A stretch of DNA of 17,524 nt, from positions 1 to 17,524 of the forward strand of contig JAHQXB010000076.1 in NCBI GenBank assembly GCA_029856435.1, given 5' to 3'. Of the stretch, positions 1,858 to 11,275 are shown in pieces. Origin of the DNA: Candidatus Jordarchaeia archaeon (GTDB lineage Archaea; Asgardarchaeota; Jordiarchaeia; Jordiarchaeales; Jordiarchaeaceae). Position 1 is the stretch's first letter. Each line of letters begins with the position of its first letter. Position numbers and translations under genes: made by a program. The notes below the pieces were generated by a model that did not search any database, was not told the origin of the DNA, and was given only the letters and a program-made list of their open reading frames with translations.

Positions 1858-2280
1858 TTGAGTTCCAAGAATGTTTTTGTTTACGGTACACTTCTAAGCA
1901 GGTATTTTAATCCCAGAAGTGGTGAAATCGACGTGCACCCCAGATCCGAGGTTCTAAGGGGCTTCAGGTTCGAGAGAGCCCTTCTCAAAAATTACAAGTT
2001 GCTATGGTGCAATACGATGAATTACCCCTTCATAACAGCTTCCCAAGGTTATTCGGTGAAGGGTGAAGTCTACTACTCGGTAGGGGAGGAAACCATAAAT
2101 AAATTAGACAAGATAGAAGGAGTCTCTTCGGGACTTTTTGAAAAAGCAACAGTTAGAGTGCTAACTGATAGTGGACACGAAGTAGAAGCTCTAGTCTACG
2201 TTGGCGGTCAAACCCTCAGAAGTCTCAGTAATTGCCCAAGCTATTTCACCCTTATCCCTGAGGAATTCGAAGAAAGGTAG
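1858..2280 (+). CDS. Gamma-glutamylcyclotransferase (GGCT/AIG2-like) family protein
   Basis: N-terminal VFVYGTL, central VKGEVY, LDKIEG (catalytic Glu position) and C-terminal EALVYV motifs; 140 aa. Confidence 0.88.
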   Translation: MSSKNVFVYGTLLSRYFNPRSGEIDVHPRSEVLRGFRFERALLKNYKLLWCNTMNYPFITASQGYSVKGEVYYSVGEETINKLDKIEGVSSGLFEKATVRVLTDSGHEVEALVYVGGQTLRSLSNCPSYFTLIPEEFEER

Positions 2281-2454: not shown

Positions 2455-2810
2455 GTGACCTCCTCCATTTGAAAATGGTGGCTTCCAGGTTTCGTTCACC
2501 ATTTCCCGCTTGTCGCCAAGACGGTGTTTTATGGATGCTTGCGAGGTTGCACCTTCACCTTCAAGGCTTTAACGGTGCAAGGCCAACGCCTCTCAGACTT
2601 ATCTCCCTCTTCCTTGTGCTTCAGGGCTTGGTCACCTAGTGACTGGTACTCCAGTCAAGCCCTATGCCAGACGTCAAGCCTGGCACTCGTTCGTTGCCGA
2701 ACGCATCGAAGCCCTTTTCGGGTATCCCAAGCTTCAACCGCACAGCGTGGCTTGGGTTTTCTCCGATTGTTCCCCCTAAGGGGAACATTTCGATATCCTA
2801 TTCGCTTTGC
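2455..2810 (-). ncRNA. Large structured RNA inside the mini-element (omegaRNA-like scaffold candidate)
   Basis: Stems: GUUCCCC-UUAG-GGGGAAC (2786-2769); CCCAAGC/GCUUGGG (2756-2726); junction-closing AUCGAA/UUCGAU (2794-2789 with 2710-2705); CGUUCG-GCAA-CGAACG (2703-2688); UGCCAG/CUGGCA (2685-2665); AGGGCUUG/CAAGCCCU (2663-2623) enclosing two hairpins; UUGCACC/GGUGCAA (2580-2547); CUUG-GCGA-CAAG (2520-2509). GNRA loops and G-U pairs occur only on the minus strand. Confidence 0.72.
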
Positions 2811-2876
2811 CAGATCAAAAAAACTTCCTTAATTCATTCACTGTTTGAAAACGGTGGTCTTCTTGAAGTGGTCTTT
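2455..2876 (-). mobile_element. Non-autonomous IS200/IS605-family mini-element with no tnpA/tnpB ORF
   Basis: Minus strand left end: TTTAT | 19 nt ending in AAGA | CCACCGTT-TTCA-AACAGTGA (hairpin 2857-2838). Right end: GAAG | CCACCATT-TTCA-AATGGAGG (hairpin 2481-2462) | AGG-TCAC ending at 2455. The two related imperfect hairpins are in direct orientation with a compensatory G-C/A-T swap. The guide/cleavage pairs AAGA/TTAT and GAAG/TCAC follow the IS608 pairing rule (AAAG/TTAC, GAAT/TCAA). Confidence 0.8.
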
Positions 2877-3024
2877 ATAAAAATCGAGCGTCAATGAGGA
2901 TTTCAAAATATTTTCAGTGCTCAAAGTCCCTCTTTTATAGAGTTGTTTCTCGTTTCTAGAGATTCAAAAAAGGGGGAAATTGGGGAAGGGAATTTTTTTA
3001 AAATTCTTATTTTTGCAGAAGAGT

Positions 3025-3522
3025 CTATTTCTTGTCTGGTGGTGGTTTCTTTAGCCATTTCTCGTAGAATGTGTCAATGTCTGGTAGAAAGTTGAACACG
3101 GTGGGGTATCCCGGTGGTGCACACTCAACATCCAGTAGTGTTAGGCAGCCTGGGCAGTAGTACTCTCGGAGTTCCTCCCATTCGGGGTTGCTTCCCATGT
3201 ACTTCATGTAGATTTCCTCTATGGATTCTCTGGTGTCTCTAACCCTCACCCGGCATTTGGTTTTCCAGTTCTCCCGGTAGTCTCCGAACTCATATCCACA
3301 GTCACACTTAACTATTCTCTGGCCCCCTTTTGAAACCACGTAGAGGTGCTCGTGGAGAGGCAAGAGAATCTTTTCCTTCCATGGTACACGAGACTGCAGA
3401 ATTTCTAATACTTTGTCGAATCTGTCTGGATCCTTGGGCCCGCTGATTATGGGTTTCAACTCTTCCCAAGTTAATTCCCCATTGATTAATCTTTCCAAAG
3501 TTTTCCTATCATATTTGGACAA
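3025..3522 (-). CDS. acxC: Acetone carboxylase-like gamma subunit
   Basis: LPLHEHLYVV, KCDCGYEFGDYRENWK and YYCPGCLTLLDVE supply four Zn cysteines. The TTG start directly abuts the acxB stop, with a GGAGGTGA RBS upstream. Confidence 0.93.
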   Translation of the reverse strand: MSKYDRKTLERLINGELTWEELKPIISGPKDPDRFDKVLEILQSRVPWKEKILLPLHEHLYVVSKGGQRIVKCDCGYEFGDYRENWKTKCRVRVRDTRESIEEIYMKYMGSNPEWEELREYYCPGCLTLLDVECAPPGYPTVFNFLPDIDTFYEKWLKKPPPDKK

Positions 3523-5739
3523 CTATTTCACCTCCACCATGAAATCTTCAGGCAGCCTCCAGAATTCTCGGAATTCCTTGGCCCACCTCTTAGATAGTCT
3601 GAGACTCTCAGAATACATGATTTTGACCGCATCGCAGAGTTTGCCTTCAATAATTTTCTTCCGCTCCCGCTCCCAGTACTCGTTGAAGGGTACAGATTTT
3701 TCCTTCCTCTCCCTTCTTATCTCTTCCCTACGCTTCCGTGTAGCTTCCTCGTCCACTACCCACTCACCCCTCTGCTCATCATAGTTTGCCACCACTCCAT
3801 AAACCTTGTAAACTATGTCCTTGGTGTAAATGCCGTCGTTAAGATCTTGCTTCACTAGATCCAGCCTTCTCTCCAAGGGATCGCCGTATCCAGGTCCGCC
3901 ACTTAATGCGTAGTGAATCAAATCATAGTTCTCAAGGGTTATGGGATAAATGGTGCAATACTCCTTCCGCGTTATTTCTCCCTTCAAGAGTCTCTCAAAT
4001 TCACCGTTGGCTGGGTCTGGGTCTCCCAAGGGATAGTCTTTTTGCTTCTCAATTATTTCCTTCATATTTGTTTTTTTGGCATATAGGCGATATGCGGTTG
4101 GTTGGGGGTATCCTCCATGCATGCCTCCGCTTCCATGGAAAACCATTCCTTCCCGAGCCCCGAAGAAGTCCACATCCCTAGAGTTGGCAATCATTGCTAC
4201 ACCCTCATAGTTCGCTCCACCTCGATACTTTCCGTAGCCCGCATTGTTGGGCTTCACCCTCCTTGAAAGGTAGGGTATACCTCCCTGAAATAGTTCCCAG
4301 GTCTCCACATCGCCCAGATCTGCTTCAGGATTCCACATAGCGTATCCCCAGTCCAGTCCGTCTCTCACTGCACTTGCTCCCAAGCCCTGACCGCTAATCT
4401 CGAAAGTTGATAGGGCCCACCTTTGACCCATAAGTGGACCAGCGGAATAGACTCCTCCACCCTGAATAGCGTCTCCAGTAAAACCATAACCTGGAATCAC
4501 CTCTTCTCTGTATCCGCGTGAAAACAATCCATAAGACAGACACTTCATCATTCCAGTGTAGGCGGGGATCAAGTTACCCCAAGGACTCTGATAGGAGAGG
4601 TAGGGATCACCAGCGTTGCTCCAAGTCCCTAGGGGATAATCGGTTTCTACAGCAAGGTATGCTCCATCGTTTACCTTGTCTCCGTAAATCAGAACTTGAG
4701 TTAGGAGGACCCATTGCCCTCCCTCCATGGCACCCTTGTCACAGTTCATGGGGTTAGCTCCGGGTCCACTAGCTCCATCAAAACTTAGGGAGATACTGCC
4801 ATCCTCTTTAACTATGATTTCTATGGGTTCGTTGGAGATTTTGTCCACCTTTGCTCTGGGCTGCCAAGCTGTTTCCTTGGAGGGTATATCGAAGAATGAC
4901 GCGGCTCTGTATCTTCCAGGTATTAGGCGTTCTTTTACGCGTTCTTTGAAGATTCTTCTGGTTTCCTCTATGGCTTCCCTTATGAATTGTTTATAGTAGT
5001 CTATTCCCTCCCTCTCTATAAATTTGTAGATTGCGTCCCTAATCATAAGGTCTCCTGCAAGGCGGCATTTTTCATCTAGCTCCCAGTATAGGGGTGTTCT
5101 CACAGATCTGCGGGCATTAATGAGGTGGTCTTTCCATATTTTATCGTTGGAGCCAATCTTTAAGCAGGTGTAGTAGACTCCATCGTCGAAGCGTTGAATG
5201 GCGGATGTCAGGTCGTGTCCCGGGACTATTCCTCCAGTGTCAACTTGGTGTGTGACTCCTCCCGCCCAGCCTATAAGCTCATCCTTCCAGAATATGGGAA
5301 TGAGGGTTTGAACATCGGTGGTGTGCACATTGCCACATTGTGGGTCATTATTGAGGAAAATGTCTCCAGGATTTATTCCGGGGTCTTCCTCATAATTTTC
5401 CCTAATCATAAACTTTATGGCTTCGCTCATCGTGTGGACGTGAACCAAGATGCCCGTTGAAACAACTATGGAGTCTCCCTCCGGAGTGTACAGGGCGAAG
5501 CAGAGCTCACCAATCTCCCTAACTATAGGCGAGGCGGCGATGTGTAGCGCGGTCTCTCTAGCGGAGACCAAGGCTCCTCTCAAACCAGCGTAGGCGCGTT
5601 CATACCTGAAGGGATCTTCCTCTTTAAGTCTAAGCTTATCTATTCCACAGTAGTATCCGGTTTCTTTAAAAACTCTCTCGCTTTCTTCAAGCATTTCCTT
5701 CAAGCTTTTCTTATTCCATCCAATACACCTTCTCGACAT
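3523..5739 (-). CDS. acxB: Acetone carboxylase-like alpha subunit (hydantoinase B/oxoprolinase family)
   Basis: ARETALHIAASPIVREIGELCF, GNVHTTD, GGVTHQVD, AMWNPEADLGDVETWE, GGPGYGDPL and FREFWRLP align with AcxB as recalled. Metal-ligand positions E78, H139, D142 and H164 are present. GGAGGT RBS. Confidence 0.93.
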   Translation of the reverse strand: MSRRCIGWNKKSLKEMLEESERVFKETGYYCGIDKLRLKEEDPFRYERAYAGLRGALVSARETALHIAASPIVREIGELCFALYTPEGDSIVVSTGILVHVHTMSEAIKFMIRENYEEDPGINPGDIFLNNDPQCGNVHTTDVQTLIPIFWKDELIGWAGGVTHQVDTGGIVPGHDLTSAIQRFDDGVYYTCLKIGSNDKIWKDHLINARRSVRTPLYWELDEKCRLAGDLMIRDAIYKFIEREGIDYYKQFIREAIEETRRIFKERVKERLIPGRYRAASFFDIPSKETAWQPRAKVDKISNEPIEIIVKEDGSISLSFDGASGPGANPMNCDKGAMEGGQWVLLTQVLIYGDKVNDGAYLAVETDYPLGTWSNAGDPYLSYQSPWGNLIPAYTGMMKCLSYGLFSRGYREEVIPGYGFTGDAIQGGGVYSAGPLMGQRWALSTFEISGQGLGASAVRDGLDWGYAMWNPEADLGDVETWELFQGGIPYLSRRVKPNNAGYGKYRGGANYEGVAMIANSRDVDFFGAREGMVFHGSGGMHGGYPQPTAYRLYAKKTNMKEIIEKQKDYPLGDPDPANGEFERLLKGEITRKEYCTIYPITLENYDLIHYALSGGPGYGDPLERRLDLVKQDLNDGIYTKDIVYKVYGVVANYDEQRGEWVVDEEATRKRREEIRRERKEKSVPFNEYWERERKKIIEGKLCDAVKIMYSESLRLSKRWAKEFREFWRLPEDFMVEVK

Positions 5740-5741
5740 AA

Positions 5742-7916
5742 TTATACCTCCATGTGGAAGATTCTATGTTCATCTAGTGTCACACTGTAACCTGGTGGAA
5801 CTAGCAGAGTTGTTGCCGGAGCTTCAATGACTGCGGGTCCGTCCACCACGTTTCCAGATTGGAGTAGCTCCATTTCCCAGATTGAAGCTTCATGCCAGCC
5901 GGTTCCCCAGAATATTTCTCTGTACCCTTTGGAAGCCTTCTCCTCGGGCTCCTTTCCGCTTAACTCGTAAGTTGGAAGTTCGGGTTTAGGTACTGGTACC
6001 ACTCCAGTGGCTACCGCTTTGGTTATGTGGTATCCCAGCTCGGGGCTTTTGGTGCCTCTCAAGAAAATTTCCTCAAATAGTTCATCGTATCTTCTAGCAA
6101 TTTCCCACACGTCGTCGGGCTGCAGGTTATCCGAGGGCGATTTCACTTCTAAGTCGTCCAACATTCCCAAATACTGCAACCTAACTGATGGCCTGAACTC
6201 CATTTCGCTAGGGTCTCTTCCCTCCCTCTTAACTTCCTCAACTATATTTTGTTTAAGTTCTGCCCAGGTGGCGTTAAGCATCATGGCTACTATGGGATTC
6301 ATGGCTCCGTTAGGAGTTATTATGAGATCTGCTGTTTTCTCGTGTCGGTATGAGTGGTCGGCACAAGCACATCCAAAGGCTGAAAAGGCTGGGGCCCACT
6401 CCGGTATCAGTATGTCTTGGAATTTCATATCCCTGGAATATCCCGCCACATGCAGAGGTCCTCCCCCGCCGAATGATATTAACGCGTAGTTTTCGGGTCT
6501 GAATCCTAAGCCTTCTATCATACCGTTGAGGTGGTTCTTCATGCTTATCTCTATTAGATCTAATGCTCCCCTGGCAGTGCTGTAGGGATCGGTTTTCATG
6601 GGTTCCGCTAACTGTTCCTCTATGGCCTTAAGTGCGCGCTCCTTATTTAGTGGGACTCTTCCTCCGAGGAAATATTTTGGGTTGAGGTACCCCAGAATCA
6701 AGCTGCAATCAGTCATGGTTACCGTTGTTACCCCTGATTCTTCGTTGCATACGCCTATGCGGTAGCCTGCGCTTTCTGGTCCAAACTCTAGGTTTTCGGT
6801 GATCTTGTTGTATCTAACGTACATCCCGGTTCCTGCGCCTATAGAGTCTAGGGCGAGTGTGGGTATGTTAAGTATATATCTCCCAATAGAGCTTTCCCAT
6901 TTGGTTGGGACATATTTCTCCATCATTAAGGCCACGTCAAAGCTTGTTCCTCCAACATCTGATGATACTAGGTTCTTTATTCCGTATTTTTCTGCTATGA
7001 ACTTGCTGCCTATGACTCCTCCTATGGGGCCAGACATGAGAATGGTTATCAACTGCTTGTGCTTTGGAGAAATTGTTCCGCCATAGGAGGTCAATATCCT
7101 TAGGGGCGCGCGTACTCCCTTCTTCTGAAAGGCTTCTGATAGTTTAATCAACTGTTGCCTTGAAGGTTCAGCCGCATACTGCTCAATTATTAGAGCGTTT
7201 AGCCTTGGAGTTTCACCTCTAACTGGGTTGTGTTCACAGGACAAAACTACGGGGACTTTTTTGCCCTTCTTTGCCATAACCTCTTCTGCGATCTCTCTCA
7301 CCCGCCTCTCATGCATGGGGTTCATGTAGGAGCAGAGAAGACAAACACAAATACTATCAACACCCATATCAAGAAGTTCTTCCACAGCTTTCCTCACATC
7401 GTTTTCGTAGAGCGGAATCAACTGTTCTCCCCAGAAATTGATTCTTCCCCGAACACCCTTAATCTGTTTTCTTGGGATGAGGGGTTTGGGGTGTTCATGT
7501 TCCCTAGCGTGGAGACGTCCCGCGTAGGGAAGCCAAATCCAGCACTGTAGGGCTCTTCCCAGCCTGTGGAGGTCTTCAAACCCCGCATTAACTATGACTC
7601 CTATGTTACTGTTGCCTTTTCTCTCCAACAATCTGTTTGTCATTAGAGTGCCGGAGTAAACTAGAGCTTCTACGGAGCCCGCCACTTCCTCTACTTTAGC
7701 GTTCCAATGGCTTAGGGCGTCGGCTATGGAGTTTAGGATTCCCACTGATTCCTCTTGGGGGGTGGTCAAAGCTTTTCCCACTGCGAATCTTCCCTTTTCA
7801 TCGATGATGAATGTGTCTGACATGGTTCCACCAGTATCCAAGGCGATGGCCTTCACAGAGAATTTTTTTCCTGACTTGGATTTAGACAAGTTTTTCCTCT
7901 CCAAACTCCCATTCAT
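5742..7916 (-). CDS. acxA: Acetone carboxylase-like beta subunit (hydantoinase A family, ATP-binding)
   Basis: DTGGTMSDTF, LVYSGTLMTN, SGPIGG, DVGGTSFD, SIGAGTG, GPESAG, FGGGGPLH and GPAVIEAPATT motifs; 724 aa; 2-nt gap to acxB. Confidence 0.93.
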   Translation of the reverse strand: MNGSLERKNLSKSKSGKKFSVKAIALDTGGTMSDTFIIDEKGRFAVGKALTTPQEESVGILNSIADALSHWNAKVEEVAGSVEALVYSGTLMTNRLLERKGNSNIGVIVNAGFEDLHRLGRALQCWIWLPYAGRLHAREHEHPKPLIPRKQIKGVRGRINFWGEQLIPLYENDVRKAVEELLDMGVDSICVCLLCSYMNPMHERRVREIAEEVMAKKGKKVPVVLSCEHNPVRGETPRLNALIIEQYAAEPSRQQLIKLSEAFQKKGVRAPLRILTSYGGTISPKHKQLITILMSGPIGGVIGSKFIAEKYGIKNLVSSDVGGTSFDVALMMEKYVPTKWESSIGRYILNIPTLALDSIGAGTGMYVRYNKITENLEFGPESAGYRIGVCNEESGVTTVTMTDCSLILGYLNPKYFLGGRVPLNKERALKAIEEQLAEPMKTDPYSTARGALDLIEISMKNHLNGMIEGLGFRPENYALISFGGGGPLHVAGYSRDMKFQDILIPEWAPAFSAFGCACADHSYRHEKTADLIITPNGAMNPIVAMMLNATWAELKQNIVEEVKREGRDPSEMEFRPSVRLQYLGMLDDLEVKSPSDNLQPDDVWEIARRYDELFEEIFLRGTKSPELGYHITKAVATGVVPVPKPELPTYELSGKEPEEKASKGYREIFWGTGWHEASIWEMELLQSGNVVDGPAVIEAPATTLLVPPGYSVTLDEHRIFHMEV

Positions 7917-8393: not shown

Positions 8394-9353
8394 ATGGTAG
8401 CTGGGTCTCACCGTATTGATATCCACCACCATATTGTTCCCCGTGAATATGTTAAATCTCTAAACAGCTTGGGAATCACCAAAACATCGGGTGTGACTTT
8501 TCCCCAATGGTCTGAGTCCGAGATGCTTGAAGTGATGAACCGTAATGGCATAAGAACCGCGATTACTTCGATCTCCTCACCTGGCGTCTTTTTTGGTGAT
8601 TCTGCCTTTGCCCGCGACCTAGCGCGAAAGTGTAATGAGATATCTGCCAAGCTTCTGACTGGTAATCCCCAGCGTTGTGGAGCCTTCGCAACCCTGCCTT
8701 TACCAGATGTAGACGGTGCCCTGAACGAAATAGATTATGCTTTGGGCACTTTGGGACTGGACGGTGTTGTACTTATGACCAACTTTGGCGGCCATTATCT
8801 GGGTGACCCACTGTTTGAGCCAGTTTTTGAGGAACTCAACCGCAGAAAAGCAGTTGTCTTTGTTCACCCCACGGATCCCGCCGGCGGTAACCCAATTGGT
8901 CCCAATATTCCAAACTCTCTGTATGAGTATACTTTTGACACTACACGCACAATAACGAATCTAATTTATGGCGGAACACTGGAACGCAATCCCCACGTGA
9001 AGTTTATTTTTGCCCATGCGGGAGGAACCATCCCCTTCCTTGCCTGGCGAATTTCCTTGGGCCTATTTATGATTCCCAACGCTGCGAAAAACGCTCCAAA
9101 GGGATTCATAAACTATCTACAAAAAATATATTATGACACTGCACTCTCAACCACTCCTTACTCCCTGCGTTCCCTCCAAGAATTAGTGAATCCCTCCCAA
9201 ATTCTATTTGGAAGCGATTACCCCTTCGCGCCTGAAAACCTCACATCAGAGCAGATCAAGCAACTCACCAGCTACGACGGTTTTGACGCTGAGGCGCGGG
9301 CTCAAATAGACCGAGGGAATGCACTCAGACTTTTTCCCAGACTGCAGATATAA
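8394..9353 (+). CDS. Amidohydrolase-2 family metal-dependent decarboxylase (ACMSD/6-methylsalicylate/gamma-resorcylate decarboxylase-like)
   Basis: IDIHHH (HxH), FVHP, FAHAGG, YYDTA and LFGSDYPF motifs; 319 aa. Confidence 0.9.
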   Translation: MVAGSHRIDIHHHIVPREYVKSLNSLGITKTSGVTFPQWSESEMLEVMNRNGIRTAITSISSPGVFFGDSAFARDLARKCNEISAKLLTGNPQRCGAFATLPLPDVDGALNEIDYALGTLGLDGVVLMTNFGGHYLGDPLFEPVFEELNRRKAVVFVHPTDPAGGNPIGPNIPNSLYEYTFDTTRTITNLIYGGTLERNPHVKFIFAHAGGTIPFLAWRISLGLFMIPNAAKNAPKGFINYLQKIYYDTALSTTPYSLRSLQELVNPSQILFGSDYPFAPENLTSEQIKQLTSYDGFDAEARAQIDRGNALRLFPRLQI

Positions 9354-9438
9354 ATCTTCACCATTAATTTGTCAACAATATCCTCTAATGAATTTTTAGC
9401 CTTAAATAATCTGTTGCAGAACTTTAAGCTGTTGGCGA

Positions 9439-9472
9439 GAAAACCCCCCGACTCTAGTCGCGGGAAGCATCA
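9439..9472 (+). mobile_element. Isolated IS200/IS605-like right-end remnant
   Basis: GAAAA-CCCCCGAC-TCTA-GTCGCGGG-AAGCA-TCAA is an imperfect palindrome followed by TCAA, resembling ends of the type GAATC..CGACTTTAGTCG..TCAA. No transposase is adjacent. Confidence 0.45.
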
Positions 9473-9762
9473 ATATCCAATAATTTAAATTACCCTTTTT
9501 GGAAATTTTTTGAAAATTACATTTTAGAGTTGTAAAAAATTCACCGAGCACAAAGAGAAAAGTAAAATTGCACAACGGAGAAATTAGGCACTATTAGCCT
9601 AGCGTCACCTTTTGTGGGAGAAATCCAACGCATAAAAAAACCTATTTGAGCCTAAAACCGATGCTTGGCGATGGAAAATGTCAAATTTTAAGCTAGAAAA
9701 GAGTTCAAAACAGCACCACCCCCCGCAACAGGAGACGCTGAAGAAACTGTACCAGAAATTAA

Positions 9763-9779
9763 AAAGAAATCTTTATATA
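9763..9779 (+). promoter_or_regulatory. BRE/TATA of the MFS gene
   Basis: AAAGAAATC-TTTATATA, about 50 nt upstream of ATG 9830. Confidence 0.6.
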
Positions 9780-9829
9780 AAAAGTGATATCAAATTAGTC
9801 TCTCAAAACTTTTCGTGGATGAATGTGAA

Positions 9830-11275
9830 ATGGCTTCCGTCAAGTACCAAGTTTATAGGTACCGCTGGGTTGCAATTCTCGCCTACTGCTTGGTGTGGTT
9901 TATAGCTCAGCCTATTTGGCTCGCCTTCGCACCCATATCCTCAACTGTAAGACAGGCGTTCTTCCTCACCGGTGTCAGTGAGACGGCGATAACGCTTCTA
10001 GTTATAATTTCCCTCATCGCTGAGATAATCGTAAGCATTCCCATAGGGGTTTTGGTGGACAAGAGAGGATGGGTTTTCTGCACCGGAGCCGGAGCTATTC
10101 TAACTACCTTTGTGGGCATAGTCAGAGTTTTCTCACCTGATATCAACTGGCTTTTACTCTTCCAGTTCCTTCAGGGAGTGGCGATGGCTTTCATCTTTGT
10201 CAGTCTCACCAAAGCGGCCGTGAACTGGTTCCCCTCAGGCGAGAGGGCGCTGGCTCAAGGTCTGGGTATGTTCGCCAACAATCTGGGAATGGTTGTGGGT
10301 CTAATAGTCACACCCTTGCTCATATCTATGTTTGGTGAGTATGCTCCACGAACGAGTCTTCAAAATGCGCTCCTAGTCTATGGCTTCGTTGCAGCGATAA
10401 TAACCGTGGTATTCTTTGTGATAGCTCGTGAAGCACCTGAACTGCCTCCGGAGCCCTGGGAAGAAACGAAACCTGTTCCTCTAAGGGAAGGTCTTTCAAG
10501 GATAGCTGGTTCTAGAGACTACTGGTTGCTCGCATCTGCTTTCTTTTTAGGTTTTGGAGTCTACATTTTCCTAACCGACTTCATTGAGCGGATAGCTTGG
10601 TCAAATGCCCCCCTAATTCAGAAGCTGATTGAGCTTTACATCACAATGTATGCGCCACAGTACTCCTTCATTTTCATCCGCTTAGAACAAACGACTGGTG
10701 GTCTCGTCTCGGGTGTAATCACCCTCACCGGAAGCGTTGGTATGCTTTTAATTCCGTGGTTTTCTGACAGAGTTCAGCGGAGGAAACCTTTCCTTCTGGC
10801 GCTGCCAATCGTCTGTATACCCATGGTTTATCTTTTGGGAACCCAATCTGGCAACGTCCTCCTCATCTCAGCTGCAATTTTCGGCTTCTTCCTACTTGCA
10901 CTCGCTCCTGTCCTATTCGAAACAATGGTTGAACTAAAAGCGGTGGGACCTATGCTTGCAGGTTTGGGTCTAGGCATAATGCTCACCATTGGACACCTTG
11001 GAAGCGCTGTGCTTCCACTTGTAGGAGGCGTTTTCCAGGAGGCTTCTTTTTCCTACATCATAGCTGAGTTGTTCTACAATCATGTCATCCTTGCAAGTTA
11101 CATGTCAAGTGTGTTCGCGAATCCCGTTTATTACTATCTCATCGCTCCACCGCCACTGATTCAGATGCCTGGAACCTTCTTTGGGGCTGCCGTGTTCTTC
11201 ACAATCCTCATGGCAATAATACCTATCTTGGCAGCGTTCGTAAGGGAAACCGGAAAAGCAGTAAGGGAGAAATAA
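9830..11275 (+). CDS. Major facilitator superfamily transporter
   Basis: YQVYRYRWV N-terminus, motif A GVLVDKRGW, second-half SDRVQRRK, and about 12 hydrophobic segments. ATG 9830 is preferred to GTG 9815. Confidence 0.9.
   Translation: MASVKYQVYRYRWVAILAYCLVWFIAQPIWLAFAPISSTVRQAFFLTGVSETAITLLVIISLIAEIIVSIPIGVLVDKRGWVFCTGAGAILTTFVGIVRVFSPDINWLLLFQFLQGVAMAFIFVSLTKAAVNWFPSGERALAQGLGMFANNLGMVVGLIVTPLLISMFGEYAPRTSLQNALLVYGFVAAIITVVFFVIAREAPELPPEPWEETKPVPLREGLSRIAGSRDYWLLASAFFLGFGVYIFLTDFIERIAWSNAPLIQKLIELYITMYAPQYSFIFIRLEQTTGGLVSGVITLTGSVGMLLIPWFSDRVQRRKPFLLALPIVCIPMVYLLGTQSGNVLLISAAIFGFFLLALAPVLFETMVELKAVGPMLAGLGLGIMLTIGHLGSAVLPLVGGVFQEASFSYIIAELFYNHVILASYMSSVFANPVYYYLIAPPPLIQMPGTFFGAAVFFTILMAIIPILAAFVRETGKAVREK

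Follow-up and report, generated by a model that had tools for sequence, protein, structure and literature searches.

In the IS605 type of insertion sequence, the genes tnpA and tnpB are divergent, and in IS608 of Helicobacter pylori cleavage reportedly takes place at a distance of 19 nt on the 5' side of the left subterminal hairpin and of 10 nt on the 3' side of the right one (Barabas et al. 2008). Among archaea, no insertion sequence family is more widespread than IS200/IS605, which occurs in over 65% of Asgard genomes (PMC13343696). The cleavage motifs at the ends of such elements pair with DNA guides located at the feet of the hairpins, a principle restated in PMC10055086, and in the experimentally studied ISGst2 of Geobacillus stearothermophilus, which encodes TnpB2, the transposon-adjacent motif (TAM) is TTTAT and the right cleavage motif (TEM) is TTCAC (PMC10055086). 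In the structure of ISDra2 TnpB, the bases of the omega RNA which immediately precede the guide pair with bases about 100 nt upstream, forming a pseudoknot (PMC10097598). Gene-less derivatives of this family form an established class known as palindrome-associated transposable elements (PATEs), a term that comes from work on Haloquadratum (PMC3119063); PATEs "often encode omega RNAs," and ISGst-related PATEs with an omega RNA as their only content are found in G. stearothermophilus (Meers et al. 2023, PMC10055086).

The window analyzed here is a stretch of 17,524 nucleotides of contig JAHQXB010000076.1 (assembly GCA_029856435.1) from a Candidatus Jordarchaeia archaeon, an Asgard archaeon whose genome (G000) is represented by an assembly of 181 contigs, among which the element described below is placed on C34. 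According to our analysis, positions 2455 to 2876 on the minus strand very probably represent a non-autonomous IS200/IS605 element of the IS605 group, that is, a PATE derived by internal deletion from an insertion sequence with tnpA directed towards the left end and tnpB towards the right end, and moved by TnpA. The top strand of this 422-nt mini-element corresponds to the minus strand of the window and reads 5'-AAAGACC...GGTCAC-3'. Elements of this kind have already been described, and the present one is a well-supported example of a PATE. In common with other PATEs, it is devoid of protein genes, retains both IS200/IS605 ends, exists in several copies, would depend on TnpA supplied in trans, and has an omega-RNA interior which would need TnpB in trans. 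It differs from them in its Asgard host, in the length of its scaffold (about 310 nt, the pseudoknot partner lying 181 nt before the end versus about 100), in the decayed condition of its copies, and in that no partner TnpB was found in the G000 assembly.

The element is located between convergent genes and disrupts neither of them. Its neighbors are a gamma-glutamyl cyclotransferase-like gene (1858 to 2280, plus strand) and the gamma subunit gene of an acetone carboxylase/hydantoinase-type operon (3025 to 7916, minus strand). This operon comprises acetone carboxylase gamma-like, hydantoinase B, and hydantoinase A genes and is followed by genes for an amidohydrolase and an MFS transporter (8394 to 11275, plus strand). 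The element itself contains no protein gene: stops are present in all top-strand frames, copies differ from each other by 1- and 2-nt indels, and the open reading frames listed within it are not conserved among copies, in agreement with the initial annotation, which had described a non-coding unit of 422 nt. An Rfam search of the element at gathering and permissive thresholds returned no relevant match.

Six copies of about 420 nt are present in the host genome, on C34 (the window copy), C88, C84, C83, C113, and C168, together with five related copies of about 310 nt on C160, C79, C68, C48 (truncated), and C152 (cut by the contig start). The two families have the left 220 nt or so in common, while the right part is shorter in the 310-nt family; the 420-nt family contains about 75 to 100 extra nucleotides between a conserved stem and the right hairpin. 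Pairwise identity among the five full copies of the 420-nt family is 88.5 to 91.5%, and each is 93 to 96% identical to their consensus. When the copies were aligned with their flanks, the likeness extended from GTGAC (window position 2455) to ...CTTTATAAA, nothing was conserved past the end that does not adjoin TTTAT, and neither terminal inverted repeats nor a target duplication was present. Positions 2455 and 2876 are the exact points where the likeness of the six copies ends. The top strand of each of them (6/6) is preceded by TTTAT, in the window at 2877 to 2881 (minus strand), and this target or transposon-adjacent motif belongs to the target rather than to the element, as it is kept in the empty sites of sister species; it also flanks the related full-length elements described below. 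The 20 nt 3' of the right end (2435 to 2454) agree with the donor joint TTTAT|TTATTGTTCC... and, under the TnpB/omega-RNA model (PMC10055086), would act as guide if the scaffold were transcribed. When second targets were sought for the 16-nt flanks of nine sister or related copies (a set that leaves the window flank aside), with up to 3 mismatches allowed, the matches listed were chance-like, and a single one among them, at 3 mismatches, was preceded by TTTAT.

Partial matches of about 220 nt were considered as tnpB-bearing parents and rejected, given that the adjoining open reading frames are ordinary host genes and the matches are the second, shorter mini-element family. A solo right-end remnant of this family (GAAG-hairpin-TAGTTCAC) is found at C161:985-1033, directly after a host gene and with no left end within 1 kb. 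The sister copy at C168:1923-2459 harbors a nested, MITE-like insertion of about 107 bp (C168:2214-2329) that has short inverted ends and is accompanied by a 9-bp target duplication (CACAGACCA); about 60 or more places in the host genome match it by BLAST, about 30 of them near full length at 82 to 93% identity.

Empty sites could be read directly in sister species. The element is absent from five sister species of the same genus, both at the locus and elsewhere, while the locus itself is present. In G004 the empty site reads ...ACAACAAATAAAAAATCGAGC, or in longer form ...GGCAGGGATTACAACAAATAAAAAATCGAGCGTCAATGA, and the window without positions 2455 to 2876 reads ...ACAATAA|ATAAAAATCGAGC, or in longer form ...GGCAGGGAACAATAA|ATAAAAATCGAGCGTCAATGA; G001 is likewise empty at this locus. 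The sister-species sequence breaks at exactly the two positions where the copy alignment ends, and the extent given in the initial annotation therefore stands to the nucleotide. A precise empty site was also recovered for the C88 copy in G003, G004, and G001, whereas that of the C83 copy, whose flanks are too diverged for a blastn comparison of the junction, is indicated by match coordinates only. Since the sister-species sequence runs uninterrupted through TTTAT, the insertion took place 3' of TTTAT and without target duplication, and since the locus is empty in the sister species, it took place after these species split. Such scarless insertion 3' of TTTAT is a signature of IS200/IS605 elements. 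Searches of 40 relatives and of 400 genomes from the phylum yielded left-end matches in a few genomes and no further copies of either family; when metagenomes were scanned with a strict left-end pattern, there was no match. Beside the C84 copy, a sequence of about 45 nt (query part L003:2262-2306) matches dozens of contig ends in G004, which points to a high-copy repeat that breaks the assembly of that sister species.

Short, gene-less, multi-copy repeats may also be MITEs with terminal inverted repeats moved by a DDE transposase, or REP/BIME-like elements. We consider the probability of such an origin practically negligible here, given the lack of terminal inverted repeats and of a target duplication, the direct and unequal ends, and the strand-specific insertion beside TTTAT; a true MITE with inverted ends and target duplication is at hand in the same genome, nested in the C168 copy, and looks quite different.

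The architecture of the two ends is that of the IS200/IS605 family. The motif CCACCRTTTTCAAAY occurs twice in the window, at 2843 to 2857 and 2467 to 2481, both times on the minus strand, against 0.01 occurrences expected from shuffles. Read on the minus strand from 2881 to 2455, the layout is TTTAT | AAAGACCACTTCAAGAAGA (19 nt, of which AAGA is the last part), the left hairpin, about 340 nt, GAAG, the right hairpin, and AGG-TCAC | flank. The left subterminal hairpin, CCACCGTT-TTCA-AACAGTGA (2838 to 2857), is imperfect, with 6 of 8 pairs, as its 3' arm carries two mismatches (AACAGTGA versus AACGGTGG in sister copies); a perfect left hairpin, CCACCGTTTTCAAACGGTGG, is found in sister and full-length elements. 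At its foot lies the left DNA guide AAGA (2858 to 2861), read from the sequence and kept in all relatives, which pairs with the TTAT of the TAM, and TTTAT is placed exactly 19 nt before the hairpin foot. The right subterminal hairpin, CCACCATT-TTCA-AATGGAGG (2462 to 2481), has 7 of 8 pairs, the right-end consensus of the sister copies being CCACCATTTTCAAATGGTGG followed by AGGAGGTCAC; it is preceded by the right DNA guide GAAG (2482 to 2485), likewise read from the sequence and kept in relatives, which pairs with the TCAC (2455 to 2458) of the terminal GGTCAC (2455 to 2460). The two ends are thus unequal and in direct orientation, with both hairpins on one strand.

According to the IS608 pairing scheme, in which bases 1, 2, and 4 of the guide pair with bases 2, 1, and 4 of the motif, AAGA fits TTAT and GAAG fits TCAC. 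The initial annotation had predicted TTxT and TCxC from these guides, and both predictions are borne out, as are the two related direct hairpins, the TTTAT 19 nt before the left one, and the TCAC after the right one, all of which lie where it had placed them when the minus strand is read. The tnpB element of G031, with left guide GAGA and TCAT at 19-nt spacing, also fits this rule, its boundary being assumed. Between hairpin and right cleavage point, the family consensus has 10 nt, the sister 310-nt family 8 nt, and the window copy, whose right end has lost 3 nt relative to the sister copies, 7 nt. The locus has in common with IS608/IS605 of H. pylori the subterminal hairpins, the 19/10-nt spacing (10 in the family consensus), the tetranucleotide guide rule, and, in its parental type, the divergent tnpA and tnpB of IS605, and differs in its hairpin sequence, in its TAM (TTTAT versus TTAC), in its TEM (TCAC versus TCAA), and in that the window copy is gene-less. 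A comparison with ISGst2, made by motifs only, shows the same TAM TTTAT, a nearly identical TEM (TTCAC in ISGst2 and in the 310-nt family, GTCAC in the 420-nt family), and the same guide pairing, whereas ISGst2 is bacterial and encodes TnpB.

Both ends had been described as intact in the initial annotation. They are indeed both present; however, the left hairpin keeps 6 of 8 pairs, the right end combines a 3-nt deletion with a 7/8 stem, and both hairpins are weakened. Folded as single-stranded DNA, the left end of the window copy reaches -1.8 kcal/mol (z 0.04), no better than shuffles and with the hairpin missing from the predicted fold, and the right end reaches -4.7 kcal/mol (z -0.9), compared with -7.6 to -9.3 kcal/mol for the ends of sister copies.

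Full-length elements with the same ends exist in other archaea. An exact-pattern scan for the 26-mer of the left end, carried out on one genome per species, found it in Methanosalsum, Methanohalophilus, Methanolobus, Methanomethylovorans, and other Methanosarcinaceae metagenome-assembled genomes (MAGs), as well as in Candidatus Sifarchaeum, one MAG each of Hadarchaeota and Micrarchaeota, and an uncultured archaeon. At eight such loci, the left end is preceded by TTTAT or TTAT and followed by a right end of the type GAAG-CCACCC...GGGTGG-TAGTTCAC, which lies 255 nt downstream in the Sifarchaeum locus, a mini-element, and about 1.3 or 1.6 kb downstream in the others. The same-end elements of 1.35 to 1.65 kb belong to Methanosarcinaceae and to the uncultured archaeon. 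Those of about 1.6 kb encode a Y1 TnpA whose gene reads towards the left end and stops within the hairpin or shortly beyond it, and TnpB directed towards the right end, whereas those of about 1.3 kb encode TnpB only; tnpA and tnpB are found together between the same ends in L053, L056, L057, and L063. The 26-nt left-end core is identical across archaeal phyla (L048 to L068, covering Hadarchaeota, the Asgard class Sifarchaeia, Methanosarcinaceae, and Micrarchaeota), and the Hadarchaeota left ends are 93 to 95% identical to that of the window over about 55 to 60 nt, which suggests that this insertion sequence lineage has spread horizontally. In G018, which matches contigs of Candidatus Sifarchaeum subterraneum, two gene-less elements of about 300 nt (L031:1240-1550 and L034:355-655) have the same TTTAT flank, the same left end, and the TAGTTCAC right end with a different interior; in them, another Asgard class has its own, independent mini-elements of the lineage.

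The autonomous parent suggested by the initial annotation is thus represented by tnpA-tnpB elements of other archaea, while the host genome contributes only a C-terminal TnpA fragment. None of the outcomes which the initial annotation had named as contrary to its reading was encountered: other copies, elements with the same ends, and precise empty sites at these boundaries were each looked for and found. At C15:19886-20026, TTTAT and the same left end are followed on the opposite strand by the C terminus of a TnpA (WSPGYYIGTAGHVSAETIRKHIEGN...), of which about 30 codons are present before the contig end cuts it; this fragment is 63 to 70% identical to the TnpAs of the same-end elements (E 4e-6 to 5e-7). 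None of the G000 contigs continues the C15 end. A cognate TnpB was not found when the fragmented 181-contig assembly was searched by tblastn with three parental-type TnpBs, the best match being 27% identical and located on C43. Given the 181 contigs of the assembly and a parent left end which runs off its contig, the parent could be missing from the assembly.

A second IS200/IS605 lineage with CCCAC...GTGGG hairpins is present in the same genome (C166:58-700, C58:2-500, and C43:36800-38150). On C166 and C58 it is represented by two complete-looking tnpA genes, which lie at contig ends and have a TTTAC-like flank on the left, and on C43 by an intact tnpB of 431 aa, whose ends we read as TAM TTCAC (guide GAAG) and TEM TGAC (guide CAAG). 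The C166 and C58 tnpA genes, identified with Pfam, were considered as partners of the mini-elements and are not obvious ones, belonging as they do to the other lineage with its CCCAC-type hairpins and TTTAC-like flank. The C43 TnpB, the only intact TnpB in the genome, was likewise discarded as a partner, as it belongs to the lineage with CCCAC-type ends and different hairpins.

The interior of the element derives from the tail of tnpB. The top-strand translation of the 310-nt family matches TnpB residues 321 to 381 (the last 60 residues) of L056 with an E value of 1e-6, the corresponding DNA matches 107 to 134 nt of the 3' region of the L056 tnpB, and the motif GGGCTGTCGTGAACCAGCCC is identical letter by letter in both. 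The 420-nt family of the window carries the same TnpB tail in frameshifted form, according to conceptual translation; its direct TnpB match is not significant (E 2 to 3), and the assignment rests on its homology to the 310-nt family. By these matches, the interior corresponds to the scaffold-encoding (omega-RNA) part of tnpB, in decayed form and with an approximate extent of 2455 to 2765 (minus strand). The initial annotation had proposed an RNA as the only cargo: its view of the content agrees with the tnpB 3'-end/omega-RNA scaffold found here, whereas a role as RNA is our inference and the cognate TnpB is not among the assembled genes.

The last six bases of the elements are complementary to a loop located 95 to 185 nt upstream, 181 nt from the end in the 420-nt family. 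In the window copy, GUGACC (2630 to 2635, minus strand) lies at the 3' edge of a loop closed by a GGGCUUG/CAAGCCC stem, and its last C already opens the 3' arm of this stem. It is the exact complement of the terminal GGUCAC, so this complementarity is intact. The two strands are predicted from sequence to form an omega-RNA pseudoknot, with the terminal hexamer as its 3' strand. Of the 13 elements which share the stem-loop, a set made up of both mini-element families, L056, and G031, 10 have an exact 6-nt complement at the homologous loop. Its covarying states are four: GUGAAC/GUUCAC in the 310-nt family and L056, GUGACC/GGUCAC in the window copy, C88, C83, and C168, GUAACC/GGUUAC in C113, where both sides changed together, and GUCAAC/GUUGAC in the G031 tnpB element. 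This concerted change in C113 suggests that the pseudoknot was of importance at the time when the family spread. With the omega RNA of ISDra2, the element has in common a scaffold made of the tnpB 3' end plus the right end and the same pseudoknot layout; it differs in its larger scaffold, in having no protein partner, and in showing no sequence similarity.

The whole element (2455 to 2876) folds as RNA with -146.7 kcal/mol on the top strand (z -4.2), compared with z -2.9 for the other strand, and covariation in the base pairs of the RNAalifold structure predicted from the five full 420-nt copies is not above that of shuffles. A strong predicted structure in an intergenic position between convergent genes might be expected of a structured non-coding RNA gene or regulatory element recruited by the host, resembling a transposon in looks only. 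We hold this to be very improbable: the element is missing from all five sister species searched, at the locus and elsewhere, its copies occur at unrelated loci, each beside TTTAT, its interior comes from a TnpB tail, and no sign of structure-preserving selection was seen among the five full copies.

We propose that an internal deletion of an insertion sequence with outward-directed tnpA and tnpB would have left the left end, the last 75 or so degenerate tnpB codons, and the right end, and that a Y1 (HUH) TnpA made elsewhere would have moved the resulting element as single-stranded DNA. TnpA would bind both subterminal hairpins on the top strand, where pairing of the AAGA and GAAG guides with TTAT and TCAC would set the cleavage points; the element would then exit as a circle, with TCAC joined to AAAGAC, and insert 3' of TTTAT, leaving the target unduplicated. 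If transcribed, the scaffold together with its 3' flank would constitute a guide RNA directing TnpB to the empty site of the element itself (TTTAT plus flank).

We regard the window copy as most likely an old and decaying relic rather than an active unit, given that no matching TnpB is assembled, that the copies are 9 to 11% different from each other, and that both hairpins of the window copy are weakened; the nested MITE in the C168 copy and the truncation of others are further signs of decay. Alternatively, the element might be a working stand-alone guide-RNA cassette, transcribed and used by a TnpB supplied in trans from an unassembled or unbinned parent to cut the empty site (homing), with TnpA still mobilizing it. 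The unbroken pseudoknot complementarity of the window copy, the concerted change in C113, the better folding of the top strand, an assembly from which the parent could be missing, and the tolerance of TnpA for flexible spacing between motif and guide (Meers et al., PMC10055086) speak for this reading. We nevertheless deem it unlikely in view of an assembly without cognate TnpB, copies which differ by 9 to 11% mutually and by 4 to 7% from their consensus, stem substitutions that look neutral, the weakened hairpins, and the nested or truncated state of sister copies. More doubtful still is the idea that the dispersed gene-less copies make up a distributed set of guide-RNA genes for one unassembled trans TnpB, in which case their long scaffold would represent a new, larger Asgard omega-RNA architecture. 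The relic interpretation, which we prefer, should probably not be hardened into a verdict that the element is dead, considering the fragmented assembly, the parent running off its contig, the spacing tolerance of TnpA, and the C113 double change.

With its exact boundaries and its empty sites, the locus documents an IS605 lineage which targets TTTAT in an Asgard archaeon, and it has little import beyond annotation. Nearly identical ends of this lineage are present in Hadarchaeota, Sifarchaeia, Methanosarcinaceae, and a Micrarchaeota genome. The locus is also a clean example of a right-end cleavage motif that serves both TnpA, through pairing with the DNA guide, and the predicted omega-RNA pseudoknot. 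Repeats of this kind should be masked as relics of mobile elements and not annotated as new RNA genes. The parental TnpB, if recovered, would be another archaeal nuclease with a TTTAT TAM and a defined scaffold.
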